From IMG/VR virus record IMGVR_UViG_3300031555_001734: 20,000 nt of DNA; one strand, written 5' to 3'. Below are positions 1-19,096 of the stretch, piece after piece. The notes under the pieces were generated by a model. It did no database searches and was not told where the DNA came from. It saw only the letters and a list, made by a program, of their open reading frames with translations. Position 1 is the stretch's first letter. The number at the start of each line of letters is the position of its first letter. Origin of the DNA: an uncultured virus (IMG/VR IMGVR_UViG_3300031555_001734) (taxonomy: Duplodnaviria; Heunggongvirae; Uroviricota; Caudoviricetes). Position numbers and translations under genes: made by a program.

Positions 1-368
1 TCGGTAAGCACATCCTTCCTGGTATCGGACAAGGCATCGATCAGACCAGCCCTGAACTGAATGATACGATGCAGGATGCGGCCAGCGAGATGATTAACTC
101 TTTCGACACAGCGACGGAGGATATCGATGTATCTGGTCTGGTAAAGAAAATGCGTGATGGCGTGACTGAACAAGTAGGAAACATCAACGCTAATGTCTCT
201 GTGAAGACCCGCACCGGAACGGGACAGGTCGATGGAACTATGGACGAGTATCTCGACTATGAACAACTGGGCGATGCCGTTGCCCGCGGTTTCGTTCGTG
301 CTGACGTCAAGGTTGAGTGCGACGACAGAGAGTTCGGCCGCTTGATCTCTGACATTGAACCTGCATAG
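1..368 (+). CDS. C-terminal end of phage tail tape measure protein (5' truncated by window)
   Basis: Frame is open from the window start (GKHILPGIGQGIDQTSPELNDTMQDAASEM...DDREFGRLI). It resembles siphovirus TMP C-termini and lies directly upstream of a distal-tail-like gene. Confidence 0.65.
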   Translation, partial: GKHILPGIGQGIDQTSPELNDTMQDAASEMINSFDTATEDIDVSGLVKKMRDGVTEQVGNINANVSVKTRTGTGQVDGTMDEYLDYEQLGDAVARGFVRADVKVECDDREFGRLISDIEPA

Positions 369-381
369 GAGGTGGTGTGAT

Positions 382-1248
382 TTGAAGTATGACATTTATT
401 ACCAGAACAGTGTAGGAACAAAGCTGGAATTCTGTAATATCCCGTATCTGCTGGAGACAGGAGATTTCCTGGACTTTGCATGGGAGTTTACTTCTTCCAC
501 GAACTACAATGCGTATGGCGGTAAAATCGATGAGTTCACCAAGTCTATCACCTCCAAGAAACTGAAACTGACCATTATGGCCTGGACTGAAGCAGATTAC
601 ATTGCCGCCCTGGACAAAATGATAGATGTCTTTGAGTACGATATCATCAATAAGACTCCGGGCAAGCTGTACTGTAACGGAAACTACATGAAGTGTTATA
701 TTACGGCGGGCAAGATGACGGATTGGGAAGACCCGGCAGATTATATGACCGCAGAACTGACGATTACCACCGAGTATCCGATGTGGATCATTGAAAAAGA
801 ATGGAACTTCGTTCCGACAGGCAACCTGGCAGCGGGAAGTAAGCGATATGCGAATCGGTATCCCTACAGATATGCAAACGGAACGACTACCGGAACGATT
901 CTTCAGGGATCGAACTCTCCGGCGAACTTCAAAATCGTGTTCCACGGGCCAGCCAATGATCCGGCGGTTATTATCGGCGGTAATACGTACGGTGTTACAG
1001 GAATCAGCCTGGACGAAAGCGATTATATCGTTATTGATTCTTCCGAGGGTAAGGTTCTGAAATACTTCGCTGATGGCGAGGTGCGGAACATTTTCAACGC
1101 AAGAACCCGAGTGAACTCGTGCTTCGAGAGGCTCCAGGCAGGCTCCTTGCCGATTCAGTGGTCTGGTGAGTATCTGTTGTCAATCACAGTATTCGAGGAA
1201 AGGAGTATGCCGAAATGGAGCTTATCTCAGTCAAGGAAGACGGTGTAG
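382..1248 (+). CDS. Phage distal tail protein (Dit)-like
   Basis: ORF 355-1248; likely start TTG at 382 after AGGAGGT. About 290 aa, follows TMP, with typical Dit-like C-terminus (FKIVFHGPANDPAV...YIVIDS...RNIFNAR). Confidence 0.65.
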   Translation: MKYDIYYQNSVGTKLEFCNIPYLLETGDFLDFAWEFTSSTNYNAYGGKIDEFTKSITSKKLKLTIMAWTEADYIAALDKMIDVFEYDIINKTPGKLYCNGNYMKCYITAGKMTDWEDPADYMTAELTITTEYPMWIIEKEWNFVPTGNLAAGSKRYANRYPYRYANGTTTGTILQGSNSPANFKIVFHGPANDPAVIIGGNTYGVTGISLDESDYIVIDSSEGKVLKYFADGEVRNIFNARTRVNSCFERLQAGSLPIQWSGEYLLSITVFEERSMPKWSLSQSRKTV

Positions 1249-2222
1249 AACTCGGACTGTTGAAGGATGTTAGAGGCTTGGATGTGAGTATCGGAGGCAG
1301 CAATGACTTTGTAATCACATTTAACTCTGGCGACTGGCAGAACAATGAGGCACTTCTCGAAGCCGATTACTGGTATGCTGACGGATATGGTGAGGTCGGC
1401 GGTAAGATCCGCTGCATCAAATCGTCCACGAAGGAAAAGAAGGTCAAGGCAAGCGGCTATACATGGCGTGGCCTTATGGAGAAAAAGATAATCGAACCAC
1501 CGGAAGGTGAAGATTACAGGGTCGTATCAGGTGAGGCAAATGCTGTGCTTGCCGAGCTGATCGAACCTTGCTTCGGCGGATTCTTTGTCGTGTCCGACGA
1601 AAATAGTGGGTTTGAAATAAGCAGCCACCAGTTCAAACGATACGAAACCCTGTTGGCGGGTACGGTAGATATGCTCTATGAAGTCGGGGCGAAGCTGGAG
1701 ATCAGCTTCGTTCCCGGCTATTCTACTGTCAGCTCATTCGTCCCTGGCTATGTGTTGGTAAAGGCAGTAGCCATTATTGACTACTCGAACGAGATCGAGT
1801 ATAGCCAGGACGGGAAAGTGGACTTCACTGCCGAGGCAAACCGAATGGGTGTCAACCATCTGATTTGCCTCGGTCAAGGCGAACTGAAAGATCGTCAGGT
1901 TGTTCACCTGTATATGGACGAAGAAGGAAACATCAGTACGGAACAGTCGCTGACTGGTGTTGACGAAATCACGGATGTCTACGACTACTCTTCTGCGGAG
2001 AGTCTGGAGGACCTGATTGTCTATGGAAAAAAACGGCTGAAAGAACAGGGAAATTACACCACGCTCCAAATCAGCCTGAATGAAATGGATGCGCAGGTTG
2101 GTGACATTGTTGGCGGTCAGGAACAGGTGACAGGTATTACGCTGAAGAAGCAGATTGCCGAGATCATCTTCAAGATCGACAGCAAGGGCAAATTATACAT
2201 TACACACAAGGTTGGTGAATGA
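1215..2222 (+). CDS. Siphovirus baseplate hub / Gp37-like minor tail protein (Tal position)
   Basis: 335 aa, SD AAGGAG upstream, follows Dit. Motifs GYTWRGLMEKKIIEP and NHLICLGQGELKDR resemble ReqiPepy6 Gp37-like proteins. Confidence 0.6.
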   Translation: MELISVKEDGVELGLLKDVRGLDVSIGGSNDFVITFNSGDWQNNEALLEADYWYADGYGEVGGKIRCIKSSTKEKKVKASGYTWRGLMEKKIIEPPEGEDYRVVSGEANAVLAELIEPCFGGFFVVSDENSGFEISSHQFKRYETLLAGTVDMLYEVGAKLEISFVPGYSTVSSFVPGYVLVKAVAIIDYSNEIEYSQDGKVDFTAEANRMGVNHLICLGQGELKDRQVVHLYMDEEGNISTEQSLTGVDEITDVYDYSSAESLEDLIVYGKKRLKEQGNYTTLQISLNEMDAQVGDIVGGQEQVTGITLKKQIAEIIFKIDSKGKLYITHKVGE

Positions 2223-2860: not shown

Positions 2861-4177
2861 ATGGCAACGCAACAGGTAAATTATAGTGACTCTGCTAATG
2901 GATGGGACGTAACCATATATTGGGAAGCGGATTATGACGATACTGAGTGTTGGGTATGGTGGGAAGTAAACTCCAACTCGTACAGCAGAACCTTCGCCAT
3001 AGTCGTAAGTGGCAATAGTAGCAACAAACTCAATTCTGGTATATCCCTTGCCTCTGGCACAGTTTGCTATTTCCAGGTATTCAAAAACGGCGCATATTCT
3101 CAGCAGAAAGGACCGTTCACGGTTTCTGCACCTGTACGTCCTAAGTATACGATTTCCTATAACGCCAACGGCGGTTCCGGAGCGCCTTCCAGTCAGACCA
3201 AGACATATGGCTATTCACTCACTCTGAGTACCACGAAGCCCACCAGGACAGGATATACCTTCCTTGGCTGGTCTACCAGTAAATCGGCAACAAGCGCAAC
3301 GTATGAGCCTGGAGACACATACACATCTGAAGGTGATGCGACTCTGTATGCTGTCTGGAAGATCATCACATACACTGTCAAGTTCGATGCGAACGGTGGC
3401 ACTGGAGCTCCTGGCAACCAGACGAAAACGTATGGAACGGCCCTGACTCTGACAAGTACGAAGCCTACCCGAACGGGATATACCTTCAAGTCGTGGAACA
3501 CAAAGGCAGATGGATCTGGAACGTCGTATGCTTCTGGTGGCTCCTACACATCCAATGCAGCGGTAACGTTGTATGCGATCTGGACTGCAAACCAGTATGC
3601 CGTCAAGTATAACGCCAACGGCGGCTCTGGCTCAATGAATGACCAGACCATGACCTATGACACGGCTGCGAATCTGACTGCAAATGCTTTCACATATGCA
3701 GGCCGCACCTTCACGGGCTGGGCAACATCGGCAACCGGAGAAAAGGTGTATTCCGATAAGCAGTCGGTCAAAAATCTGGTATCTACGTCTGGTGGCTCCA
3801 TCACACTTTATGCCGTTTGGAGCATAAATGCCATCACGATTACCTTCGATGCTGCCAGCAATGGCGGTACTTGCAGTGAAGCAAGCAGAGAAATCGACTA
3901 CGGTAGTTCTCTCGGCACTCTGCCTGTAGCGAGCAGACCGTACTACGTTTTTGCCGGCTGGTATACTGCAAAGACCGGAGGCACGAAGGTAACGACGACC
4001 AAGACGTTCACTGCATCCACAACGCTGTATGCTCAGTTTGTCATTGATGCTTCCACCAGCATCAAAGTATCCGGTGCCTGGAAGAAGGGCATCCCATACG
4101 TCAAGGTTGGTGGCGAGTATAAGAAAGGCTACGCATGGGTGAAAATCGGCGGAGTCTGGAAGCAGGGAATTGGCTAA
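2861..4177 (+). CDS. InlB B-repeat (Listeria-Bacteroides repeat) protein, putative tail adhesin
   Basis: SD GAAAGGAG. Four ~70-aa repeats (YT[I/V]x[Y/F][N/D]ANGG...GYTFxGW...TLYA[V/I]W) and a C-terminal triple (V/I)KVxGxWK-type motif. Confidence 0.8.
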   Translation: MATQQVNYSDSANGWDVTIYWEADYDDTECWVWWEVNSNSYSRTFAIVVSGNSSNKLNSGISLASGTVCYFQVFKNGAYSQQKGPFTVSAPVRPKYTISYNANGGSGAPSSQTKTYGYSLTLSTTKPTRTGYTFLGWSTSKSATSATYEPGDTYTSEGDATLYAVWKIITYTVKFDANGGTGAPGNQTKTYGTALTLTSTKPTRTGYTFKSWNTKADGSGTSYASGGSYTSNAAVTLYAIWTANQYAVKYNANGGSGSMNDQTMTYDTAANLTANAFTYAGRTFTGWATSATGEKVYSDKQSVKNLVSTSGGSITLYAVWSINAITITFDAASNGGTCSEASREIDYGSSLGTLPVASRPYYVFAGWYTAKTGGTKVTTTKTFTASTTLYAQFVIDASTSIKVSGAWKKGIPYVKVGGEYKKGYAWVKIGGVWKQGIG

Positions 4178-4867: not shown

Positions 4868-5443
4868 ATGGGTGTTTCAAAAGTAATATATGGCGGTAAA
4901 GTCCTGATCGACTTGACCGCCGATACCGTAAAGGCTTCAGATCTTCTGTCCGGCGTTACAGCGCATGGCAGTGATGGCGAGCCGATTGTCGGTACTTGCT
5001 CGTTTGATGCAGATACTCAGGATGCGAATGCTACCGCTTCTGAAGTTCTGAAGGACAGGATCGTCTATGTGCGAGGCGTAAAAGTCACCGGCTCAATGCC
5101 GAACAACGGCGCAGTCAAGGGAGTCATCACCAGTAAAGATACTCCTTACATTGTGCCACCTGGTTTTCATGATGGATCCGGAACAGTACGGATGGATGAT
5201 ACCGAGGCAGCAAAACTGGTTCCTGACAATATCCGCGAAGGTGTAACGGTTTTTGGTGTAACTGGTGCGATGTCTGGACTTGAAAGCGTAAAGGCTCAAG
5301 CGAAAACCATCACACCTGCCGTTTCGGATCAATCCGTTGTTCCGGATGAAGGGTATAATTACATTTCTCAGGTTACCGTTCTGGCTATCCCTTACGAGGA
5401 GAGCAGCAACGCAGCTGGCGGTATTACCGCAACGATCGGGTGA
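4868..5443 (+). CDS. Phage tail fibre-related repeat protein
   Basis: 191 aa, SD AAGGAG. Contains tail-fibre-type repeats (ASDLLSGVTAH...IVGT; ASEVLKDRIVY...VTGSM; PDNIREGVTVFGVTG). Confidence 0.6.
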   Translation: MGVSKVIYGGKVLIDLTADTVKASDLLSGVTAHGSDGEPIVGTCSFDADTQDANATASEVLKDRIVYVRGVKVTGSMPNNGAVKGVITSKDTPYIVPPGFHDGSGTVRMDDTEAAKLVPDNIREGVTVFGVTGAMSGLESVKAQAKTITPAVSDQSVVPDEGYNYISQVTVLAIPYEESSNAAGGITATIG

Positions 5444-5449
5444 TGACTT

Positions 5450-5686
5450 ATGCCTATCAGTAAGGTTATTTATTACGGAAAAACTCTGATGGATCTGACG
5501 GACAGCACCGTAAACCCTGAGAATTTGGCGACCGGAGAGGTCGCTTATAATTCTGCAGGCGAACGAATTGTGGGAACCGCTGACATGAACAAAGGGGCAA
5601 CCTTTGAGGTTGTAGAAGAAACCCTGACTATTGTCAGCGAGAAATCTGTGGTATCCGAAGAAACGCTTGAGATGGGAGAGTTGTAA
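5450..5686 (+). CDS. Small paralogue of the N-terminus of the preceding tail protein
   Basis: MPISKVIYYGKTLMDLTDSTV...GERIVGT aligns with MGVSKVIYGGKVLIDLTADTV...GEPIVGT. Stop overlaps the next ATG (TAATG). Confidence 0.6.
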   Translation: MPISKVIYYGKTLMDLTDSTVNPENLATGEVAYNSAGERIVGTADMNKGATFEVVEETLTIVSEKSVVSEETLEMGEL

Positions 5687-8600
5687 TGTCTGATATTAGC
5701 AAAATTGTTCTTAATGGCGTTGAGTATGACCTGAAGGACTCAACAGCCAGAACTGATCTGGCTACAGCTCTGGCTAGATTGAGCGCACTTCTCACCGAGT
5801 TGCAGGCAAACCCGGACTATGCACCTACGGCAGAGGTCGTTGACATCCGCACGGCCTATGACGGAACTGTTTATGAATTTGCTGGTGATGCAGTCAGAGC
5901 ATTAGGGCAGCAACTTAGCGAGTTCAAGGAAAAGTTCGGTGATAACCTGTACTTCGGTTGGAAGTATGAAAACAGTGTTCTCGAACTGACGCTTAACGGA
6001 AATGTTTGTTCTGACCCTGTTACTATCGTAAGTGGTGGTTCTGGCGGCAGTGCCAATAACGCCACCATGTCCCTGAAGAACACCGGCGGATGGGTATATA
6101 AAACGATTGCAACAGGTAAGGAATGTTCTGTCCAGGCAACATGGTCATCCCTTGAGGATGGCATCAGCACAGGCACAGGCACCCTCAAGGTCACGGTGAA
6201 TGGATCTGTCCAAATAAACAGATCCATTGAGCAGGGCGATTTTTCTATCCCTTTGGAATCGTATCTTGTCGACGGCCCCAATACTGTCCGCATCAATGTT
6301 ACCGATGTCTATGAAAACAGCAAAACACTGACGTTCACCATCAATGTTGTGGCGCTGTACCTCAATTCCACTTTTGATGCTACCGCCCAGTACACAGGCG
6401 CAATTACTTACTACTATACCCCCACGGGTGCTGCAGAAAAAACGATGCACTTCATTCTGGATGGTGAAGAGATTGCGACAGAGATTGTGTCTGTTACTGG
6501 ACAGCAGCAGGAGTTTTCTATACCTGCGCAGACACACGGAAGTCATACCTTCGAGACATATTTCACGGCTGTTGTCGGTTCTGACACGGTTCAGAGTAAT
6601 TCTCTGTACTATGACCTGATGTGCATCGAAGATGGCAACACAACCCCTATCATTGCAAGCACCTTTAGGCCGGTTGCAACCGAACAGTTTGTCACATTCA
6701 CGATTCCTCATATTGTTTACGACCCTGCTAATTTGCAGACTACAGTCGAATACAGAGCCTCTGGTGAGCTGGTAAGTAGCCTCACGGTGGACAGAACCGA
6801 GCAGAAGTGGAGTCTTCAGGGGGCAGATGTGGGCGACCTTGAACTGACCATTACCTGCGGTGATACCGTAAAGAGTTTTACAGTACCCATCATCGAAAGT
6901 TCTATGGATGTATCAGCGGTCACTAACAGCTTGACCCTCCACCTGACAGCCTATGGTCGGAGCAATAATGAGGCGAATCCGGAAGTGTGGGAGTTCGGCG
7001 ATTGTGCTGCATCTCTCAGTGGCTTCAACTTCAAATCTGACGGCTGGCAGCTGGATGAGGATGGGAATTCCGTTCTTCGTGTTGCTGGTGATGCCAGGGT
7101 CTACATTCCTCTGCAGATATTTGCGGAGGATTTCCGTTCTACTGGCAAGACTATCGAGTTGGAATTCGCCACCCGGGATGTGCTGAACTATGATGCTATC
7201 CTATTCAGCTGCATGTCCGGAGGACGTGGTCTGGAAGTCGGTGCGCAGAAAGCCACGCTGACCTCCGAGCAGAGCCAGATCGGCACGCAGTACAAGGAAG
7301 AGGAACATGTCCGGCTCGCATTTGTCGTTGAAAAGCGAGCAAACCGGCGGCTACTTCTGATGTACATAAACGGCATCATGTCTGGCGCTGTTCAGTACCC
7401 CGACAACGACGACTTCTCCCAGACCGAGCCTGTCGGCCTCTCCATCGGATCCAGCGATTGTACCACAGATATTTATTGCATCCGTGTGTATGATAACGAT
7501 CTGACCCGCTATCAGGTGTTGAACAACTGGATCGCTGATACTCAGGTCGGCACGCTGAAAAAGGAGCGGTACGAGCGGAACAACATTTATGACGACTACG
7601 GCCGCATCACCATCGGCACCCTCAACAAGAATCTTCCTTACCTTGTCATTGAGTGCCCTGTCCTCCCTCAGTTCAAAGGCGATAAGAAAACCTGTAGTGG
7701 TTACTATGTTGACCCGGTGCATCCGGAACGCTGTTTCTATTTCGAGAATGCCCAAATTGACGTTCAGGGTACTTCCTCTCAGTACTACAAGGTCAAGAAC
7801 TACAAGATTAAGTTCAAAGGCGGCTTCATACTCACGGACGGTACGACCGTAGAAGTGTATGCTATGAATGACAACGCCGTCCCGGTCGATACCTTCACCT
7901 ATAAGGCAGACGTCGCATCGAGCGAAGGCGCCAACAATGTCGTCCTGGCTCAGCTCTACAATGAACTATGCCCGACCAAGACACCTCCACAGGAGGAAGA
8001 CCCCAGGGTGCGGCAGACTATTGACGGTCATCCCATTGTCATCTTCTGGGATTCCGGCTCCGGCCCTGTGTTCGTCGGTAAGTATAACTTCAACAACGAC
8101 AAGGGAACCGAGGATGTATTCGGCTTTAAGACGGGTGACGAGTCCTGGGAAATCAAGCAGAACGGTACTGACCGTGTCGGTTTCCATAGCGCTGACTTCT
8201 CTGAGGGCAGCGGCTGGGAGAACGACTTTGAGGCCCGGTACCCGGAGGACAACACCAATACTTCAAATCTGGAAAGATTCTCTGCATGGCTCGTTACCAC
8301 CGATCTGACTCAGGTTACGGGCGCAGACCTCGATGCAGCTGTGACCATCAATGGAGTGGAATACACCCAGGATACAGAGGAATACCGACTGGCTAAATTC
8401 ACTGCAGAGCTTCCTGACTGGATGGATGTTTCCGCAGCGGTATTCTACTATGTGTTCACTGAAATTTTCCTTTGTATTGACCAGAGAGAAAAGAACGCAT
8501 TCCCGACCTTGTATGCGCTGCTGCTTCTGTGGATTATCCTGTTCTACGATGCTGACTCTTCCCTCGGCATCAACAACAAGGGTGCACTCGCATTCGAGTA

Positions 8601-9996
8601 CTTCCTGGAAGACATTGACTACACCGAAAGCGGAGACCCCGTGTACAACGGTCAGAACTCCGTCCTGTGGGTCAACCTGAGAAAGTGCTTCTATGCGAAA
8701 ATTACCGCAGAATACCAGCGCCTCCGTACTACCATCCGCGGAGATGGCAGTGGCCTGCCGTTGATCAGCTATGAGGTTGTCGATGCGTTGTTCGAGGCAC
8801 ATCAGGGTAAGTGGTGTGAAGCTATCTACAACGAGGACATGGAACGAAAGTGTCTGGACGCTCTGGCCGACGGCGATACCTCCTATCTATCCATGCTTCT
8901 CGGAAAGAAGGAGCAGCAGAGAAAGTGGTGGACATACAATAGATTCCGCTATCTGGATTCCAAGTATGTTACCGGCTCCTCTATGGAGAACCGTATCATT
9001 ATCCGTGCCAAGTCCAAAGCGAATGTCTCCCTGATCGCCTACGTTAATATGTACGGCCACGTCTACTACAACGACGAAATGGCTGAGCATCGCATGGAGC
9101 GTGGCAAGGAGTACGAATTTGTCTGGGCTGCTTCCGGAGCAGAGGACGCAGTTATCGGTATCAACGACGCTGATATGCTGACCAGTCTCGGCGATCTGGC
9201 ACCGCTTCAGGTTGAAACCATAGACCTGTCGCCGGCGATTCATGTCACATACATCAAAATTGGCGATGCCGCCGACGACTATGAGAACGCCAGCCTGACT
9301 TCTGTTACCTTTGGTAATAACTATTTGGCCAAGTATATCGATCTTCGTAAGTGCTCGAAGCTGACACAGAGCATCGACATTTCCGGTTGTACCGGAGTAG
9401 AGGAGGTTTACCTCGACGGCACCTCTGTTACAGGTATCATTCTTCCTGACGGCGGCATGGTTCGGGTTCTGCATATCCCGTCCACAATTGCAAGCATCAA
9501 GATTCTGAATCAGACCAAACTGGAAGAGTTTGCGTGCCCTGACTTCTCGCAGGTATCTTCTCTGCGTATAGAGAATTGCGGTACTCTCGTCGATACCGCT
9601 TCCATCGTTGCTGGCATGCAGAGTACCGGTCGTGTCCGCTTGATCGGAATGGACTGGACTTTGGATAGCACAGATATCATGGACAAGCTGATCGGCATGA
9701 AGGGTCTGACAGAAACGGATATCAACACTGACAAACCCGTTCTGTCAGGCAAAGTTCACTTCTCTATGGCACTTCCAATCAGCAAACTGCTGGAATATGA
9801 AGAATCGTTCCCGTTCCTGACTATCACAGCAGATTCTATTGCAGCTGATGTGCTGATGGTACCCGGCGCTGTTCTGAAGGACAGCGAGGGAGACATTCTG
9901 AAGATGTCCGACGGCGGCTATGAAACTGAGTTTACCGCAGATCAGATCGATGCATTTACGAGCGCTGTCCTGGAAGCACTTGCTTCGCTTGAATAA
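5686..9996 (+). CDS. Large multidomain phage protein: Ig-like region, LamG/concanavalin-like domain, CotH-kinase-like domain, leucine-rich repeats
   Basis: 1436-aa ORF. LamG-like HVRLAFVV...LMYING...IGS...DIYCIRVYDNDLT; CotH-like VQGTSS...KNYKIKF, FVGKYNF, DQREKN, YDADSSLG; LRR-like YIDLRKCSKLTQSIDISGCTGVEEVYLDGTSVTGIILP. Confidence 0.65.
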   Translation: MSDISKIVLNGVEYDLKDSTARTDLATALARLSALLTELQANPDYAPTAEVVDIRTAYDGTVYEFAGDAVRALGQQLSEFKEKFGDNLYFGWKYENSVLELTLNGNVCSDPVTIVSGGSGGSANNATMSLKNTGGWVYKTIATGKECSVQATWSSLEDGISTGTGTLKVTVNGSVQINRSIEQGDFSIPLESYLVDGPNTVRINVTDVYENSKTLTFTINVVALYLNSTFDATAQYTGAITYYYTPTGAAEKTMHFILDGEEIATEIVSVTGQQQEFSIPAQTHGSHTFETYFTAVVGSDTVQSNSLYYDLMCIEDGNTTPIIASTFRPVATEQFVTFTIPHIVYDPANLQTTVEYRASGELVSSLTVDRTEQKWSLQGADVGDLELTITCGDTVKSFTVPIIESSMDVSAVTNSLTLHLTAYGRSNNEANPEVWEFGDCAASLSGFNFKSDGWQLDEDGNSVLRVAGDARVYIPLQIFAEDFRSTGKTIELEFATRDVLNYDAILFSCMSGGRGLEVGAQKATLTSEQSQIGTQYKEEEHVRLAFVVEKRANRRLLLMYINGIMSGAVQYPDNDDFSQTEPVGLSIGSSDCTTDIYCIRVYDNDLTRYQVLNNWIADTQVGTLKKERYERNNIYDDYGRITIGTLNKNLPYLVIECPVLPQFKGDKKTCSGYYVDPVHPERCFYFENAQIDVQGTSSQYYKVKNYKIKFKGGFILTDGTTVEVYAMNDNAVPVDTFTYKADVASSEGANNVVLAQLYNELCPTKTPPQEEDPRVRQTIDGHPIVIFWDSGSGPVFVGKYNFNNDKGTEDVFGFKTGDESWEIKQNGTDRVGFHSADFSEGSGWENDFEARYPEDNTNTSNLERFSAWLVTTDLTQVTGADLDAAVTINGVEYTQDTEEYRLAKFTAELPDWMDVSAAVFYYVFTEIFLCIDQREKNAFPTLYALLLLWIILFYDADSSLGINNKGALAFEYFLEDIDYTESGDPVYNGQNSVLWVNLRKCFYAKITAEYQRLRTTIRGDGSGLPLISYEVVDALFEAHQGKWCEAIYNEDMERKCLDALADGDTSYLSMLLGKKEQQRKWWTYNRFRYLDSKYVTGSSMENRIIIRAKSKANVSLIAYVNMYGHVYYNDEMAEHRMERGKEYEFVWAASGAEDAVIGINDADMLTSLGDLAPLQVETIDLSPAIHVTYIKIGDAADDYENASLTSVTFGNNYLAKYIDLRKCSKLTQSIDISGCTGVEEVYLDGTSVTGIILPDGGMVRVLHIPSTIASIKILNQTKLEEFACPDFSQVSSLRIENCGTLVDTASIVAGMQSTGRVRLIGMDWTLDSTDIMDKLIGMKGLTETDINTDKPVLSGKVHFSMALPISKLLEYEESFPFLTITADSIAADVLMVPGAVLKDSEGDILKMSDGGYETEFTADQIDAFTSAVLEALASLE

Positions 9997-10008
9997 GGAG
10001 GTAGCACA

Positions 10009-11202
10009 ATGGCTCAAAATATTGAACAGTTAAGTCATACCGGTCAGGAACTGGACAAGGCTATTGCTGGTTGGCTTAACACCCTCATTCCTGCGTATAC
10101 CCTCCCTGAACAGGTAACCTTCAGAGCGGCACTGGATCCCACGGTGCCGCAGGTTCACCTGTACTGGGCGTGGGAAAGTACGGATTATGCCAGCGGTATT
10201 ATGATCCGCAGAAAGGTTGGATCCTTGCCGGAACACTCCGAAGACGGCGAGCTGGTGTGTAACATCACCGGCACGGAAACAACCACCTATGACGATGCGG
10301 GATTCGATATGGAGGATCCTGAACAGGTCGGAACGATGGCAGCTCCTGTAACCTGGTATTACAGAGCGTTCCCGTACAACACCAATCTGCAGAACCAGAC
10401 CCACTATCAGACCACGGTGAATCTGGGTGTCATCTCTGTCAATGTCTATTATCTGGCTGAGTCTACTACGTTGACATCCATCGCCCTGGGCGGAGATTTC
10501 GTCTTCGGAAGATGGAACTCCACGCCGTTGATTTGGAGAGTAGCAAATATCCAGGAAGATCGTGCGCAAGTCATTCTTGCAACAAACTTCCTGAAGATAA
10601 CTGCACAGTACGACGAAAGAGAACCTAACAACCCGATTACAGACCGTAACAACGGTAATAACCGATGGTCGTTGTCCAATATCCGTCAGTGGCTCAATTC
10701 TGATGGTGCTGCCGGAGAGTGGTATGTGGAATCCCACGATTATGATGCAGCCAGTAACACCACCAAGAACCGCTCTGGCTTTCTGTATGAGTTCACAGAG
10801 GCGGAGAAAGGTATCATTATCCCGGAGGAGCATACGATGCTGCTGCCTAGCATTGATGGCGGCGGTACCGAAACTGTGGTTGATACAGTATGGCTCCCGA
10901 GCCGTGATGAAATGGGTCTTGGATCTGAGAACAATAGTTACCCCGAAGGATCTGTGTTCCAGCTTTTTGATGGAGACCTTAATACCAATGCCAACCGAGC
11001 TGACGGATGGAATGTTATCTACTGGCTCAGAACGGCCTATGCCTCCATCGCGATCAACGCGCGTTACGTCGCTGCGGCGGGCTCGCTCGGCAGCCACATC
11101 GCCTACAACTCTTTTGCTGTCCGGGCGGGCTTGACTATTCCTCTTTCTACTGTCCTTTCTTACAATGAGGAAACAGGTTACCATGAGGCGGTAGTCGTCT
11201 AA
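10009..11202 (+). CDS. DGR target protein: N-terminal FN3/Ig-like domain plus C-terminal DUF6273/C-type-lectin-like variable domain; putative receptor-binding protein
   Basis: SD AAGGAGG. Motifs NNRWSLSNIRQWLN, DTVWLPSRDEM, YWLRT...AVRAG typical of Bacillota DGR targets. Contains the VR matching the downstream TR. Confidence 0.88.
   Translation: MAQNIEQLSHTGQELDKAIAGWLNTLIPAYTLPEQVTFRAALDPTVPQVHLYWAWESTDYASGIMIRRKVGSLPEHSEDGELVCNITGTETTTYDDAGFDMEDPEQVGTMAAPVTWYYRAFPYNTNLQNQTHYQTTVNLGVISVNVYYLAESTTLTSIALGGDFVFGRWNSTPLIWRVANIQEDRAQVILATNFLKITAQYDEREPNNPITDRNNGNNRWSLSNIRQWLNSDGAAGEWYVESHDYDAASNTTKNRSGFLYEFTEAEKGIIIPEEHTMLLPSIDGGGTETVVDTVWLPSRDEMGLGSENNSYPEGSVFQLFDGDLNTNANRADGWNVIYWLRTAYASIAINARYVAAAGSLGSHIAYNSFAVRAGLTIPLSTVLSYNEETGYHEAVVV
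11033..11131 (+). repeat. DGR variable repeat (VR)
   Basis: 99-bp ungapped match to 11787-11885 with 12 mismatches, all opposite TR adenines. Confidence 0.95.
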
Positions 11203-11216
11203 TTTACTCCCATAAT

Positions 11217-11231
11217 GCCGCCGAAGGCGGC
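11217..11231 (+). promoter_or_regulatory. GC-rich hairpin with GAA loop downstream of the target gene (candidate DGR homing hairpin and/or terminator)
   Basis: GCCGCC-GAA-GGCGGC perfect stem; a T run follows at 11240-11245. Confidence 0.6.
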
Positions 11232-11329
11232 CCGGCCGATTTTTTAGGGAATAACGAAATACGTTATAATATAACAAAATCCGGAAGGTTCGCCAAACTC
11301 CGCTATAATACATCCGAGGATGTGATATT

Positions 11330-11734
11330 GTGGCTGAGCAAAAATCTGAAATTCGAGATCTTGAGATTATCATCCGGGCCAGAGATCTTCAGGACTGGGT
11401 GTTTCGTATAACATCGAAAAAGCCGAAGAAGCCCGTGAATGAGTTTGAGGATAACGAGAATAACGGTCTTCCTGCAAAGTATCAGCATAGCATCGGAACC
11501 AGGATGCAGAACTACACGCTGGATATATTGGAGTATTTGCAGAATGCTCGCTTCGATAAAAAAGAGCGTGTCGGTCATCTTGATTCTGTGATTAGTGCGA
11601 TCGTCAGGCTGAACGAATGTATTTGGCTCTGTTTCAGATTAAAAATTATCCGCAAAGCCTCTGCAGAAGAAGGCGAGAGGATCCTCCTTGAAGTAAAGCG
11701 TATGGCCATTGCGTGGCGAACGAAATCGGCGTAA
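11330..11734 (+). CDS. avd: DGR accessory variability determinant (Avd-like four-helix bundle)
   Basis: 134-aa basic, helical protein (LPAKYQHSIGTRMQN...EVKRMAIAWR) with a GTG start, lying between target and TR as in canonical DGRs. Confidence 0.82.
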   Translation: MAEQKSEIRDLEIIIRARDLQDWVFRITSKKPKKPVNEFEDNENNGLPAKYQHSIGTRMQNYTLDILEYLQNARFDKKERVGHLDSVISAIVRLNECIWLCFRLKIIRKASAEEGERILLEVKRMAIAWRTKSA

Positions 11735-11786
11735 TGGTGATACTGGTGCAGCTAGATCGCTCTGATTCTTTGTTTTTCCCGGGCGC

Positions 11787-11885
11787 CGGCCAATGCCTCC
11801 AACGCGAACAACGCGCGTAACGTCGCTGCGGCGGGCTCGCTCAACAACAACAACGCCAACAACTCTTATGCTGTCCGGGCGGACT
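11787..11885 (+). repeat. DGR template repeat (TR)
   Basis: Non-coding AAC-rich copy of VR (11 AAY triplets in the VR frame, 24 adenines) between avd and RT. Confidence 0.95.
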
Positions 11886-12083
11886 GGTGGTATAGCGAGG
11901 TGAGTAAGCGAAAGCTGAAAAGAGTGCACCATCATCAAGCGAGCTGTTCCATCCCGAAAGGGTAAACAAGGGGTTAAAATCCCATGGCTGATGTCTATTG
12001 CGTGGCAACAGGTATTAGGCTATTACAGTCAAAAGTTATCGCCCCGGATCTCCGGGGCGATAATGGTTTTAGGAGTGTGCGGT

Positions 12084-13256
12084 ATGGGAGAAATGGAAAA
12101 AGCTACAGATCTGGCCTCTCTTCACAGGGCATATTACAAGGTGAAGAAAGGAAAGCGTGGAAAGCCTGCGGCAATTAAATTCGGTCTGAATGCCATGGAA
12201 GGTCTATGCCGACTGAAATGGAGCATGGAAAACCGGAGTTATCATCTTAGCAACTATACAACATTCAATGTCACAAGGCCTGTCTTTCGTGAGGTGAAGA
12301 CGTGCTCGTTTCAAGACAAAATCGTACTCAGTTCGGTGTGCAAAAACGTCCTTTGGGATAGGATAGAACCACACCTGATAGACACGAACTATGCGAGCCG
12401 AAAAGGCTTTGGCCAGCACATGGCCCTGGATATCCTCGAAAAGCATTTGAGATCCTTTTACATCAATCATGGTTGCAACGGTTACGTATTGCGGATCGAT
12501 GTGAGAAAGTATTTCTATAACCTATCCCACGATGCCATTGCTCTGGATATGCGGCGATTCGGTTTTGATGATTGGACAATCTGGATTGTATGCCAGATCC
12601 TGGTGAGTTCTCATCACTCAAAGAAAAGCGGATATTACACTACAGATGCTAAAGGCCGCTGCAGCGTAATATTCTGCGATCAGCAAGGCTTTCCGGAGCT
12701 TGAGGTAGGATCCCCGATCGGCAACGAGTCGAGCCAGGTTTTTGCGGTGCAGTATGCAAATGACATTGACCACGCTATCAAAGATCAGTGGGGCGTTAAG
12801 TACTACGGTCGTTATATGGACGATAGTTATATCATTCACCATGACAGACAGTATCTGGAAGAGCGCCTCGCCGATCTGCGGGAGCTGTATCGAAAAAGAG
12901 GCCTTGAATTGAATAATAAAACACAGATCTCGCCGTTGAAAAACGGAGTGAGTTTTCTGGGTATGCACTTCATCCTGACCGATACCGGAAAGGTAATACG
13001 CAGGCTGAGACCGAAGAATGTTCGGTACCAGCGTGTCCACATTCGGGAAAATGCGGAAGCAGTTGCCCGAGGGAAAATGACAGTCGAAAGTTACTGGAAA
13101 CGATTCGAGGCGATGGATGCACACAATGCCCATGCGGACGCAAAGTCGCTTCGGAAAAAGCTACGGCGATATGCCGAGGAGGCGTTGCAAAATGCTTATC
13201 ATCGAGAACAACGGAAACTGGGAGAAGTCCAAGAGGACATCAAAGAATCTCCCTGA
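12084..13256 (+). CDS. DGR reverse transcriptase
   Basis: ORF 11991-13256; likely start ATG 12084 (AGGAG upstream) or 12093. RT motifs YASRKGFG, LRIDVRKYF, DGR-type PIGNESSQ (IGxxxSQ) and catalytic YMDD at 12813-12824, then FLG. Confidence 0.93.
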   Translation: MGEMEKATDLASLHRAYYKVKKGKRGKPAAIKFGLNAMEGLCRLKWSMENRSYHLSNYTTFNVTRPVFREVKTCSFQDKIVLSSVCKNVLWDRIEPHLIDTNYASRKGFGQHMALDILEKHLRSFYINHGCNGYVLRIDVRKYFYNLSHDAIALDMRRFGFDDWTIWIVCQILVSSHHSKKSGYYTTDAKGRCSVIFCDQQGFPELEVGSPIGNESSQVFAVQYANDIDHAIKDQWGVKYYGRYMDDSYIIHHDRQYLEERLADLRELYRKRGLELNNKTQISPLKNGVSFLGMHFILTDTGKVIRRLRPKNVRYQRVHIRENAEAVARGKMTVESYWKRFEAMDAHNAHADAKSLRKKLRRYAEEALQNAYHREQRKLGEVQEDIKESP

Positions 13257-13491
13257 AGCACATATTGATGGAGGAACGATGTTTCTTCCTATCAATATCG
13301 AGGAAACTACGATCCTTGAACCCGTCTTTGACGAGGAAGGGAACGAGATTTCCACCACTGAACACACGGGCTATTCCTTCGATGAATACCGTATCAATAA
13401 GGCCATAAACCTCCCGGAGGAGGCATCGGCCGCACTCGCTGGCGCTTTCCAGCTCAGCGTACAAGCACTTAAGATCCTGGGGGTGATGTAA
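13192..13491 (+). CDS. Hypothetical phage protein (possible tail-fibre assembly factor)
   Basis: ATG 13192 with strong SD GAGGAGG inside the RT 3' end; 99 aa, acidic; abuts the next ATG. Confidence 0.55.
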   Translation: MLIIENNGNWEKSKRTSKNLPEAHIDGGTMFLPINIEETTILEPVFDEEGNEISTTEHTGYSFDEYRINKAINLPEEASAALAGAFQLSVQALKILGVM

Positions 13492-13932
13492 ATGGCAACA
13501 CTCATTGAAAGGGCCAAAGAGGTAAGATCCTACACCGAGACGGCCGCACAGTTGCTGCCTGACGACATTGCTTTGAAAGCCAAGGCACTGTACCCCCGAT
13601 GGGAAGACCTTGTGGAAGAAGGAAAGAAAGTGAAAGCGGGCTTCCGATTCATGTACGGAAACAACCTCATGGAGACCGTTCAGCCGGAGCACACCTTCAC
13701 CAACGAGCACACCCCCGGAGCAACCGGAACAGAGAGCCTGTTCAAGAATCGGAATGAATCGAATGCCGGATCCCGGGAGGATCCGATCCCGTACAACGGC
13801 AATATGGATCTTCTGGAAGGCAAGTATTACAGCCAGGACGGCGTTGTGTACCTGTGTACCAGAGATACCGGCATTGCTGTCTACCACGCTCTTGCTGATC
13901 TGGTCGGCATCTATGTTGAGCCCGCCGAATAA
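13492..13932 (+). CDS. Phage protein with putative CBM5/12-like carbohydrate-binding modules
   Basis: 146 aa. YPRW...VKAGFRFMYGNNL...HTPG...SLF and DPIPY...GKYYSQDGVVYLC resemble small chitin-binding-type modules common before phage lysis genes. Confidence 0.5.
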   Translation: MATLIERAKEVRSYTETAAQLLPDDIALKAKALYPRWEDLVEEGKKVKAGFRFMYGNNLMETVQPEHTFTNEHTPGATGTESLFKNRNESNAGSREDPIPYNGNMDLLEGKYYSQDGVVYLCTRDTGIAVYHALADLVGIYVEPAE

Positions 13933-14018
13933 CGCATTTCGTGATTTTCTAACTTCATGGAGAATGAATAAAGAAATGATGCTATAAATGAGGATATAAC
14001 CTTTTAGGAGGGATCCTC

Positions 14019-14258: not shown

Positions 14259-15062
14259 ATGCAAAATAAGCAAAAGCAATGGCAACTTTATTATCTGGGA
14301 TTCTACGGAGAGTCGACCTCAGATATTGACGGTATCTGGGGACCGAAGTCCAGAGCTGCGACCGAGCAGCTGCAGAAGGCCGTAGGAATCAAGGATGACG
14401 GTATTTTCGGTACCCACACTCGCAATAAGACAAAGGAAATGATTTCTGCGATTCAGGAAGTCATCAGCGGCAGCGGTGGAAAGAAGCTTACGATCGATGG
14501 CCTTGCTGGGCCTGCTACGATGTCGGCTACGATCTGGTACCAAAAGGAGCACGGCCTGACGCCCAACGGACTTGCGGATGCTGAAACCCGGAAGTACATC
14601 AGTGAAAACTGTGGCCCTCAGGTTGGTGAGGACATAAATGTCCCTGGCAACGAATCTGCGACCGACATTCCTGTCGGTGACAAAAAGGAGACAACTGGCA
14701 CCTTCTGGGACGAAATTCAGTATTTCACTCGGGATGAACTGAAGTGTAAATGTGGTGGGAGGTTTTGCAATGGCTTCCCGGCCGAGCCTCAGGAAATGAC
14801 TGTCCGACTGGCAGATCGTGCCCGGAAACATTTCGGCCGTCCCGCTCATAACGTCAGCTTCCTGCGCTGCCGGCAGCACAATGCCAATTCCGGAGGTGTC
14901 GCCAACTCCCAGCACATGTATGGAGAAGCAATGGACATTTATATTGAGGGCGTTACTGCGAACGAACTCTACAGCTTCATGAAGAAGCAACCGGAGGTCC
15001 GGTACACCTATAAGATCAACAATACAAATGTCCACTTCGATATTCCTAAGGGAGCGAGGTGA
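14259..15062 (+). CDS. Endolysin: two peptidoglycan-binding domains plus Peptidase M15 (Zn) domain
   Basis: PG_binding_1-like motifs DGIWGPKS...LQKAVGIKDDGIFG and DGLAGPAT...YQKEHGLTPNG; M15A motifs SFLRC..HN...SQHMYGEAMDI and VHFD. Confidence 0.85.
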   Translation: MQNKQKQWQLYYLGFYGESTSDIDGIWGPKSRAATEQLQKAVGIKDDGIFGTHTRNKTKEMISAIQEVISGSGGKKLTIDGLAGPATMSATIWYQKEHGLTPNGLADAETRKYISENCGPQVGEDINVPGNESATDIPVGDKKETTGTFWDEIQYFTRDELKCKCGGRFCNGFPAEPQEMTVRLADRARKHFGRPAHNVSFLRCRQHNANSGGVANSQHMYGEAMDIYIEGVTANELYSFMKKQPEVRYTYKINNTNVHFDIPKGAR

Positions 15063-15067
15063 TACCA

Positions 15068-15547
15068 ATGCAGCAAATATACGAAGTGATCGAAATGATC
15101 ACGGGGAAGCCTGCTAAAGAAGTGCTCGGCGTAGGCTTTCTTTTCCTGATGCTGTTATCGATCTTTGTTGAGATAACCCCCATCAAATTCAATCCCATCA
15201 CATTCCTGATCCAATTGCCTGGCAAGATCATGGGGTGGCTCAGTAAGGCCATCAACGCGCCTGTTCTGGCCGAGCTTGCGAAACAGGAGAAAACCATAGG
15301 GGAGATCCGGGATGTAGTTGATGACAACGAAATCGATAGGATCCGGTGGGAAATACTCGACTTCGCAAATTCTTGCAGGCAGCATAAAAAGCACACTCTG
15401 GATGAGTTCGTACATATCATAGAACTTAATGCAAAATACCATTCGATTCTGGAACGCCGAGACCTGAAGAACGGCAGAATCGATCTGGAGTATGCCTACA
15501 TCGAAAAGATCTACCAAGAATGCCTGGAAGAAAACAGCTTTTTGTAA
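15068..15547 (+). CDS. Phage lysis-region membrane protein
   Basis: ORF 15059-15547 (start GTG 15059 or ATG 15068). One N-terminal hydrophobic segment, then EITPIKFNP...IRWEILDFAN; located between endolysin and holin-like gene. Confidence 0.6.
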   Translation: MQQIYEVIEMITGKPAKEVLGVGFLFLMLLSIFVEITPIKFNPITFLIQLPGKIMGWLSKAINAPVLAELAKQEKTIGEIRDVVDDNEIDRIRWEILDFANSCRQHKKHTLDEFVHIIELNAKYHSILERRDLKNGRIDLEYAYIEKIYQECLEENSFL

Positions 15548-15629
15548 AGGGAGGGGATCTCAATGCGTAAGATTATTTAGCGTCACACAGTAAGCCATAA
15601 ACTCTCAATCACTCAAGGAGGAAAAACAA

Positions 15630-15968
15630 ATGAACTTCGACATTAACGCAATCGCCCCTGTTCTGCTGAACTACGCATCCATTCTGCTGGGTGTCATGTT
15701 CCTTTTGGTCTTCACCGTCAACGTCATCGTTGAGGTTGTCAAGCGCCTGGTTCCTGTGGTCCCCACCGATCTGGTGGTGTTCATCGTATCCATTGCGGTA
15801 ACGATGCTGGCCTTGTGGATCTGCGCTTCCGTCCTTCAGATTACTATCATGTGGTACTACGCCGTCGGCGCATTGGTATTGGGTATTTTTGTTGCCTATG
15901 CTGCCATGTTCGGCTTCGACAAATTCAAAGAGCTGTATGACCGGCTCAAGACTGTCGCTGATAAATAA
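15630..15968 (+). CDS. Holin-like membrane protein
   Basis: 112 aa, three hydrophobic segments, charged C-terminus, strong SD AAGGAGG, last gene of the late operon. Confidence 0.65.
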   Translation: MNFDINAIAPVLLNYASILLGVMFLLVFTVNVIVEVVKRLVPVVPTDLVVFIVSIAVTMLALWICASVLQITIMWYYAVGALVLGIFVAYAAMFGFDKFKELYDRLKTVADK

Positions 15969-17069: not shown

Positions 17070-17519
17070 TTAGTTTGTGTGGGATACGGGGTGAGTAGCT
17101 GCATATAAGAGCTTCCTGGCAGGGAAGCCGAAATCCTGATAGCCTTGCTTGATCGTGTTCAGGTAGTTGGGAGAAGGCTTGCTCCATATCTTGCCGGGGG
17201 TCATAACATAGACAATGGCCGGGACGGTACGCAGATCTGGGAGTTTAATCATCATGACCTTCTTGGTGTACAGGGTGGGATAGCCTTCGTACCGATCCAG
17301 ACGGCGCTCGTCCTCGGCTGTGATGGACCAGATGCCGACCGGCACTTCGGATCCCTTTCGGGGTTCGATGTTGGCAACGCCGACTCTCCAGTTGCTCCGG
17401 AAAGTGATGCGGTAATCCTTCAGGACAGTGGAGCCGATCTGATAGGCTCCGGGGCAGCGATCCTTCATCTGCTGGACGTTGAGGTTGCTGCCGTAGGCGA
17501 TGTAAAATTTTCTGCTCAT
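17070..17519 (-). CDS. Gamma-glutamylcyclotransferase (GGCT/AIG2-like) family protein
   Basis: Signature YIAYGSNLN...QM..RCP and LDRYEGYP.LY. Confidence 0.88.
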   Translation of the reverse strand: MSRKFYIAYGSNLNVQQMKDRCPGAYQIGSTVLKDYRITFRSNWRVGVANIEPRKGSEVPVGIWSITAEDERRLDRYEGYPTLYTKKVMMIKLPDLRTVPAIVYVMTPGKIWSKPSPNYLNTIKQGYQDFGFPARKLLYAATHPVSHTN

Positions 17520-18107: not shown

Positions 18108-19019
18108 TTAAGCTGCGGTGGAGGTAAAGGCACTGGTCAGGTGCTGACGGCAGGTCTTGAACTCAGGACCTTTCATTCCCAGACGGTTCTTCAGGACACG
18201 GTTCATCAGGTCGGCTTTCTGCTCCTGGGTGTAGTGGGACACATCCTTGAAGAACAGGCGGTCAGCATCAGTCTCGATGGCCCATGCGCTCATAGCCAGG
18301 CAGAACTGAACATAAGCCTTGATCTTGCCAGCATGGGTGGTGCCGTTAAAGAGCCGGAACTCGACGGTGCCCTTAGTCCAGAAAGCGTGGAGGTTGATGC
18401 CGTGGTACCGGGTGGCGTTGTAGTGCTCGTGGCTGATGCCACCGGTGTAATCATCGTTTGCACGGCTGTACCAGATGCGTTCCATGTTTGCTCTGGTCTT
18501 CTCGGCCTGCTTCATGGCCTTCAGCAGAGAGGGGGAGATCTTGTGGCACCAGCGGTCGGCACGACCACCGATCTGAAGGGCTTCGTAGAACAGATCCTGA
18601 CGGCCGGTGGCGAAGTTGATCAGGCGGGTCAGGCTTTCGGGGGTATGCTTTGCACCGTCCACGTGGACGTGGATTCCGCAGGAGCTATTGGCGATGGCAC
18701 CAGCGGAGCGGAGAGCCCGGATGATGTTCTGCAGATCGTCCAGATCTTCGTACTGGAGGATGGGGGTTACGACTTCGCAGGAGTAAGAATCACCGGCCCA
18801 AACCACCCGGCCGTTTTCCTTGCGCTGGGTAGTGATGGAAGCGTCGGACATAGCCTTCCAGGTGCGACCCTTGCGATCGGTTGCACCCCAGGTCTTGTAA
18901 TAGGTACCGATGTAGCGGGCGGTGGTACCGTAGTAGTTGGCAATTACCTTAGCGGCAGCTTCACGAGTCAGGCCGGTCAGCTCGATTTCTACGCCGAAGT
19001 TCTGTTCCTTGATCATCAT
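18108..19019 (-). CDS. Putative amidoligase (Amidoligase_2, COOH-NH2 ligase) family protein
   Basis: Motifs FGVEIE, W...SDASI, EVVTPIL, SCGIHVHV, RYHGIN, TVEFRLF; start ATG 19019 after SD AGGAGG. Confidence 0.88.
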   Translation of the reverse strand: MMIKEQNFGVEIELTGLTREAAAKVIANYYGTTARYIGTYYKTWGATDRKGRTWKAMSDASITTQRKENGRVVWAGDSYSCEVVTPILQYEDLDDLQNIIRALRSAGAIANSSCGIHVHVDGAKHTPESLTRLINFATGRQDLFYEALQIGGRADRWCHKISPSLLKAMKQAEKTRANMERIWYSRANDDYTGGISHEHYNATRYHGINLHAFWTKGTVEFRLFNGTTHAGKIKAYVQFCLAMSAWAIETDADRLFFKDVSHYTQEQKADLMNRVLKNRLGMKGPEFKTCRQHLTSAFTSTAA

Positions 19020-19067
19020 TTTGTTTTCCTCCTGTATGTTGGGTGGTGTGTTTTTCTTTATGGGTAT

Positions 19068-19096
19068 ATAGTACACTAAATTGATGTACTTGTCAA
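19068..19096 (-). promoter_or_regulatory. Sigma-70/A promoter for the amidoligase operon
   Basis: Minus strand TTGACA-17 nt-TACTAT. Confidence 0.75.

Follow-up and report, generated by a model that had tools for sequence, protein, structure and literature searches.

A 20,000-nucleotide stretch of DNA from an uncultured tailed virus (IMG/VR record IMGVR_UViG_3300031555_001734; hereafter the window) carries what we read, with a probability of roughly 0.88, as a canonical diversity-generating retroelement (DGR) of a tailed gut phage, one that recodes the DUF6273 tip of a tail-associated target protein. The cassette lies on the plus strand in the order target gene (10009-11202), Avd-like accessory gene (11330-11734), template repeat (TR) and reverse transcriptase (RT) gene (12084-13256), with a variable repeat (VR) at the 3' end of the target gene. 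Gene order, RT homology and the TR/VR pair bear out the proposal of an initial annotation, made from the letters of the DNA, that this is a complete DGR with the architecture of Bordetella phage BPP-1. The parts of the cassette are as follows.

10009..11202, plus strand: DGR target gene, 397 aa; an open reading frame (ORF) with its own GGAGG ribosome-binding site, 12 nt past the stop codon of the large tail protein gene
11033..11131, plus strand: VR, codons for residues 342-375 of the 397, placed by alignment and by codon variation in relatives
11119..11131, plus strand: G+C-rich 3' end of the VR, beyond which VR and TR diverge
11330..11734, plus strand: Avd-like accessory gene, 134 aa, GTG start, between the target gene and the TR
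11787..11885, plus strand: TR, non-coding, within the gap 11735-12083, 52 nt past the Avd-like gene and 198 nt before the RT start
12084..13256, plus strand: DGR RT gene, 390 aa, ATG behind AGGAG, in an ORF open from 11991

An adenine-specific repeat pair

VR and TR align over 99 nt without gaps, at 88% identity and with 12 mismatches. All 12 fall on TR adenines (7 A>T, 4 A>G, 1 A>C), and the non-A positions are identical at 75 of 75. The TR comprises 24 A, 36 C, 25 G and 14 T, and the probability that 12 random mismatches among 99 positions would all land on the 24 adenines is 2.9e-9 (C(24,12)/C(99,12)). Read in the frame of the target ORF, all 24 TR adenines belong to 11 AAY codons, one TAT and one GAC (Y = pyrimidine). 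NNY codons specify 15 amino acids and zero stops, so 15^11 is the correct number of variants for the AAY codons. These repeat coordinates, the 99-bp length and the 12 adenine-only mismatches reproduce the initial annotation exactly, and its codon tally and variant number hold in the target frame.

The homology ends in the G+C-rich stretch GTCCGGGCGG, and the two repeats diverge past 11131 and 11885, respectively. In BPP-1, IMH (initiation of mutagenic homing) and IMH* elements set the direction of transfer; the stretch here appears IMH-like by its position, there being no IMH consensus to score it against. Beside it, three bases from the end of the homology, lies the twelfth mismatch (11129), which turns GAC in the TR into GGC in the VR and specifies G374 (11128-11130). 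This glycine is invariant in 8 of 8 members of the target's 90%-identity cluster and in 27 of 27 homologues of alignment A2. Rather than a freely mutated site, the position probably marks either the boundary of transfer or a glycine kept by selection. Because G374 is invariant and sits at the edge of the homology, we take the freely varied set to be the 11 AAY codons and the one TAT.

Neither strand of the window holds a second VR for this TR. An exact 22-mer from the VR/TR core had 0 matches in viral contigs; we rejected its lone metagenome match (L007) as chance, the two sharing only 22-23 bases.

The general scheme for such elements is the BPP-1 paradigm, reportedly due to Liu in 2002, Doulatov in 2004 and Guo in 2008. 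By that scheme, the avd-TR-RT unit would be transcribed, and the RT and the Avd-like protein would copy TR RNA into cDNA, misincorporating opposite adenines. The cDNA would then replace the VR at the 3' end of the gene at 10009-11202. Such a cycle could change as many as 11 AAY codons, each to any of 15 residues, and the single TAT codon, to any of 4, without introducing stops.

Rewriting of the VR among close relatives

The pattern of variation among near-identical relatives is the one that a working DGR would leave. Eight proteins of several origins make up the target's 90%-identity cluster. When its six other full-length members are compared with the window protein, 63 of 78 residue cells differ at the 13 codons that contain TR adenines (TR-A codons), versus 11 of 2304 at the remaining residues (Fisher p about 1e-97). 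A further 96-aa fragment in the cluster has 11 differing sites, all 11 at TR-A codons. At the AAY sites of the cluster, 0 residues lie beyond the NNY set. Because near-identical relatives differ almost only at TR-A codons, the element must have rewritten the VR repeatedly since these lineages split. The 8 members carry 7 distinct VR peptides and are otherwise 0-5 residues apart, and turnover has therefore been very recent.

Comparison at the DNA level points the same way. Words of the region occur in 20 sequencing runs (13 study codes) whose records are animal gut or faeces metagenomes. Four of these (X1, X3, X8 and X18) were compared with the window as assembled contigs, which hide rare variants. 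The X8 and X18 contigs are strain-level relatives: 14 of their 16 listed VR differences fall on TR-A positions, and 22 differences are listed across the remaining 1902 nt. The TR itself is unchanged in X1 and X3, and in X8 it is unchanged over 11787-11841 while the X8 VR differs.

Several contigs end at the repeats. In X3, X8 and X18 the breaks fall within the VR or TR, and IMG/VR contig L001, 100% identical to window positions 5009-11017, stops 16 nt before the VR. We considered these breaks as a sign of VR heterogeneity within samples and rejected them as evidence for it, as collisions between TR and VR in the assembly graph explain them equally well.

On these comparisons, the DGR has been active in nature in this lineage, and we regard that conclusion as well supported. 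The initial annotation had suggested current or recent activity and had proposed looking for A-specific VR variation in related phages. The activity is borne out as recent, by a variation that is concentrated at TR-A codons.

The RT and its accessory gene

The RT matches the families RVT_1 (E 2.5e-14) and phrog_1423 (E 4.5e-81). Against solved structures, its best match is 8ub7 (E 1e-18), a 328-aa RT corresponding to Brt of BPP-1 (bRT); a group II maturase (6me0, E 0.0027) and a retron-type RT (5hhl, E 0.0061) are far weaker. BLASTP against Brt from the BPP-1 record gives 25% identity across 306 residues (E 2e-23). These structure-profile and BLASTP comparisons bear on a check on RT kinship that had been proposed with the initial annotation, and they place the enzyme nearest to bRT.

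The catalytic signatures are also in place. When the enzyme is aligned with Brt and with four RTs from IMG/VR, residues G209, G213, S217, Q218 and R243-D247 (RYMDD, counted from 12084) are invariant, so the YMDD motif had rightly been called intact. IGxxxSQ and YMDD are what we take to be the signatures of DGR RTs. All four IMG/VR loci with a related RT (29-35% identity) carry A-only TR/VR pairs (15/15, 15/15, 14/14 and 12/12). Judged by these comparisons, the RT is of DGR type with its catalytic motifs intact.

Two side observations concern the RT and its loci. Residues about 177-207 form an insertion of about 30 residues before IGxxxSQ, which is missing from Brt and from three of the four aligned IMG/VR DGR RTs; L006 has a shorter one there. 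The order of parts also varies among loci. In L003 (5740-7805) and L004 (5684-7598) it is TR, RT, VR, with the VR downstream of the RT, and in the window, L005 and L006 it is VR, TR, RT.

Between the target gene and the TR lies a small gene that is matched by Avd models of three libraries, among them phrog_3206 'Avd protein of DGR' (E 1.4e-8). It has 20 homologues, down to 52% identity, one of which (P0134) is annotated PF22296 in a precomputed column.

A DUF6273 target behind a giant tail protein

The target protein combines an FN3-like domain with a DUF6273 domain that ends in the VR.

Residues 12-26, plus strand: conserved N-terminal helix, predicted with low model confidence
10090..10461, plus strand: FN3-like domain, residues 28-151
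10462..11199, plus strand: DUF6273 domain, residues 152-397, with the VR at its C-terminus

Residues 204-378 match DUF6273 (PF19789) with E 1.9e-22 and 80.4 bits, against a Pfam gathering cut-off of 23.5. An AlphaFold2 model built from a 66-sequence alignment reached a predicted local distance difference test score (pLDDT) of 90.8 and a predicted template modelling score (pTM) of 0.80; we used it in place of a single-sequence fold, which had a pLDDT of 30.5. The target has 133 homologues at E <= 0.001, and the hypervariable columns are the same in homologues down to 42% identity. An ESM Atlas search with residues 152-397 gave only matches under 0.9.

Directly upstream is a tail module that ends in a very large protein.

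355..1248, plus strand: Dit, tail module
1215..2222, plus strand: minor tail protein, tail module
5686..9996, plus strand: large tail protein, 1436 aa, after Dit and the minor tail protein

Residues 115-1380 of the large protein are similar to residues 328-1679 of the 2245-aa DGR target of Hankyphage (E 4e-89, 24% identity). Its family is broad, with 839 matches at E <= 0.001 among 8000 scored candidates, and many members end in the domain that the window target carries. PF19789 is found in 36 of the 120 homologues listed (precomputed column), and it lies at the extreme C-terminus in 10 of 10 homologues that we rescanned. Of this family's 80 IMG/VR loci, 40 extend 3 kb or more downstream; 8 show an RT match and 7 an A-biased TR/VR pair. 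The VR lies within the giant ORF in 6 of 6 such loci examined (L055 was left out, its coordinates being those of L054). Trunk and DGR-written tip thus form one polypeptide of 1870-2245 aa in these relatives.

The window shows a different arrangement, and it is not alone in it. The closest relatives of the 1436-aa protein among the homologues listed (66-90% identity, 1407-1467 aa) lack DUF6273. The family of free-standing 390-400-aa targets is conserved, and the split form, with its free-standing tip, is kept among relatives that are 42-90% identical. We place the target on the tail because its gene follows the tail module and because relatives fuse DUF6273 and the VR to the C-terminus of the large protein. 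It is most likely a ligand-binding tip on a tail that includes the 1436-aa protein, as judged from gene position and domain fusions. The initial annotation had called it a DUF6273/CLec-like (C-type-lectin-like) tail protein; the DUF6273 and tail parts of that description stand, and the lectin part is weighed below.

A more specific idea, to which we give slightly less than an even chance, is that the hypervariable tip was split off a giant tail protein in this lineage and docks on the 1436-aa trunk through its N-terminal helix. The target is not a paralogue of the large protein (best E 1.6). A complex prediction that paired the target with residues 1150-1436 of that protein scored 0.27 and 0.23 against a mark of 0.32, which is evidence neither way.

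Across the family of the 1436-aa protein, C-terminal ends are swapped between members and include DUF6273, BspA-type LRR_5, CotH, collagen and others. A protein of NatCom_3357 (Ca. Heliusvirales) is 49.8% identical to the 1436-aa protein and has no DGR adjoining it. NatCom_3357 shares only this large protein with the window, and DGR terms are absent from the Heliusvirales paper.

Comparison with known systems

The annotated BPP-1 record runs in the same order as the window: tail proteins, mtd with the VR, avd, TR, brt, two small ORFs and an endolysin. Both elements have the VR at the 3' end of the target gene and A-only mismatches, and Brt is homologous to the window RT. They differ in the target, which in BPP-1 is Mtd and in the window is an FN3 plus DUF6273 protein that is not Mtd-like in sequence. 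They differ as well in repeat length (134 nt in BPP-1, 99 nt in the window), in their accessory proteins, bAvd having no detectable pairwise similarity to the Avd-like protein, and in the RT insertion before IGxxxSQ, which Brt lacks.

DGRs on DUF6273 targets have already been described in Faecalibacterium phages Roos, Pioen, Lelie and CP11 (PMC11792537) and in the gut phages nd4 and nd12 (PMC10743442). In the portions of these two sources drawn on here, the VR lies in the C-terminal part of DUF6273, as it does in the window, and VR variation in cognate genomes is taken as evidence of activity, as it is here. The nearest named RTs are 31-36% identical to that of the window (nd12, 35.8%; FP_Toutatis and Lelie, 33.5%), and the DUF6273 part of the target shares 32-33% identity with regions in nd4 and nd12. 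The Faecalibacterium and nd phages differ from the window in that identity is low and the phage collection holds no match at the DNA level. Set against their DGRs, the window has a single VR that we could find. Tentaclins, as presented in the same portion of PMC10743442, carry an N-terminal DUF6273 followed by Ig domains, whereas the window target has FN3 followed by a C-terminal DUF6273. With DUF6273-directed DGRs of gut phages already published, all that sets the window apart, and modestly so, is the split between trunk and tip.

The Bacteroides Hankyphage p00 (BK010646) shares the homologous trunk, within its 2245-aa target, and a DGR directly after it. Its record and the portion of PMC6199706 drawn on place the VR at the C-terminus of that target, followed by the TR and RT. 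The two systems differ in that the VR-bearing end of the Hankyphage target lies inside the giant ORF, whereas the window has a separate 397-aa gene. The C-terminal part of the Hankyphage target has no profile similarity to the window target, and its RT is only weakly similar to the window RT (21% identity, E 7e-7).

Weighing alternative explanations

Several results weigh against a canonical, active DGR on a tail protein. The top NCBIfam match of the RT is a group II intron RT/maturase (E 4.3e-18, 65.6 bits versus a cut-off of 300), and its NCBIfam matches include no DGR RT family. Taken at face value, this would assign the RT to a group II intron or a retron and leave the repeats as an unrelated duplication. 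We give that explanation next to no credence: among solved structures bRT leads by 15 orders of magnitude, an Rfam search of 9500-13800 detected neither intron nor retron RNA, all four related RT loci are DGRs, and the adenine-only mismatches have the chance probability given above. The accessory gene also falls short of curated cut-offs (NF033474, E 2.8e-6, 27.6 bits versus 80; PF22296, E 5e-4, 20.9 bits versus 40), and its product yields no BLASTP alignment with bAvd and an hhalign probability of 0.7%, from a shallow alignment. A profile search of solved structures with the Avd-like alignment found nothing under E 1. Because its scores lie under the curated cut-offs and it shows no similarity to bAvd, we call the gene Avd-like only; the adjacent Avd of the initial annotation is right as to position and model matches and too firm as to name. 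Its divergence also favours a DGR that was formerly active and is now frozen, with the cassette intact and the VR of this genome no longer diversified. Run X1, which may be the source sample, fits that explanation too, since one contig covers its VR completely and shows 0 differences from the window. There are, moreover, VR differences off TR adenines (11109 C>A in X8, 11118 T>G in X18, and S368A in P0125), which might have been copied from altered TRs of those strains. Retrohoming may be ongoing in this genome, but the contigs compared hide the minor variants that would show it. Freezing is nonetheless improbable, as the RT motifs are all intact, the TR keeps all its adenines and still matches the VR at every non-A position, the 8 nearly identical proteins differ in their VRs, and the Avd-like gene is retained among its 20 homologues.

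Other points concern the target. Its best PHROGs family is phrog_10993 'Hoc-like head decoration' (E 1.1e-29), and it contains an FN3/Ig-like domain. These features suit a capsid-decoration or mucus-adhesion protein (Hoc-like or 'tentaclin'-like) whose DGR would tune adherence to gut surfaces and not bacterial host range. The portions of PMC10743442 and PMC6199706 drawn on contain published hypotheses of intestinal/immune-cell or mucus binding, and the sole homologue of the target with a solved structure is one domain from an IgA peptidase that a gut bacterium secretes. Yet the target gene stands at the end of the tail module, not amid head genes, and in relatives the domain forms the end of the large tail protein encoded behind Dit and the minor tail protein. 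Because a tail location is compatible with a non-bacterial ligand, only the capsid part of this explanation is weakened. We consider it unlikely as a whole, if clearly less so than freezing, and the ligand could be either a bacterial receptor or a gut surface. Host-range switching, as the initial annotation proposed, is one candidate role. As to the proposed lectin fold, an hhalign comparison of the target with the Mtd sequence profile gave a probability of 0.1%, and neither a Foldseek search of the PDB nor two VIA-align searches list a C-type-lectin DGR target of the Mtd/TvpA type. Because FN3 matches fill those lists, the fold searches are uninformative on a C-type-lectin fold. A canonical DGR acting on a DUF6273 tail tip remains the explanation that we prefer.

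Genomic setting

The remaining features of the window lie between and around the cassette genes.

2861..4177, plus strand: Listeria-Bacteroides-repeat protein, 438 aa, with four repeat domains (Flg_new, E 4.7e-61), inside the tail module
11217..11245, plus strand: hairpin GCCGCC-GAA-GGCGGC (11217-11231) and T-run (11240-11245), read from the sequence and absent from the output of a consensus scan
11265..11270 and 11304..11309, plus strand: two perfect TATAAT hexamers upstream of the Avd-like gene, absent from the output of a two-hexamer scan
11886..12083, plus strand: TR-RT spacer, 198 nt, with a perfect 12-bp hairpin at 12036-12063
13279..13491 and 13492..13932, plus strand: two small ORFs between the RT and the endolysin, without a hydrophobic segment
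14259..15062, plus strand: endolysin, the lysis genes following the RT
15059..15968, plus strand: two membrane proteins past the endolysin, one with a single hydrophobic segment and the other with several

The hairpin and T-run at 11217-11245 are likely a terminator of the target gene, and the TATAAT region (11265-11309) is a candidate promoter of the avd-TR-RT unit. A separate avd-TR-RT transcript would fit because the 127-nt gap between the target and Avd-like genes holds the hairpin, the T-run and both hexamers. Downstream, the region 11735-12090, which includes the TR-RT spacer, has a folding z of -2.05. The spacer hairpin is G+C-rich, lies 20 nt upstream of the RT start and is terminator-like in a minus-strand scan; it may be a piece of the DGR RNA or an attenuator.

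Outside the cassette, the 438-aa repeat protein looks like an adhesin, and the two membrane proteins are likely holin-type partners of the endolysin. A gamma-glutamyl cyclotransferase-like gene (17070-17519) and an amidoligase gene (18108-19076), both on the minus strand, lie downstream of the lysis genes.

The element had been labelled a prophage DGR. The window does not bear that label out, as it contains no integrase, attachment site, bacterial flank or lysogeny gene. A megablast of positions 9000-14000 against a phage collection gave no match, and the nearest available record, G001, is a 5.4-kb fragment that lacks the DGR. As to the host, genome-contig scans with alignment A2 and with P0016 found no relative, and an endolysin search was uninformative. 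An Rfam search of 9500-13800 at E <= 1 found no group II intron or retron RNA, its sole match being a chance miRNA (E 0.88).

What the element adds

With the window, the many DGRs of gut phages gain another that is well supported and active in nature, its target family having about 130 detectable homologues. It is also a clean natural example, with seven VR variants from eight near-identical proteins. By linking a free-standing DUF6273 target to giant tail proteins with a fused tip, it helps to place such targets on the virion. If the tip has indeed been split from its trunk, tail-tip diversification would here take a modular form, with a detachable adaptor that the DGR writes.

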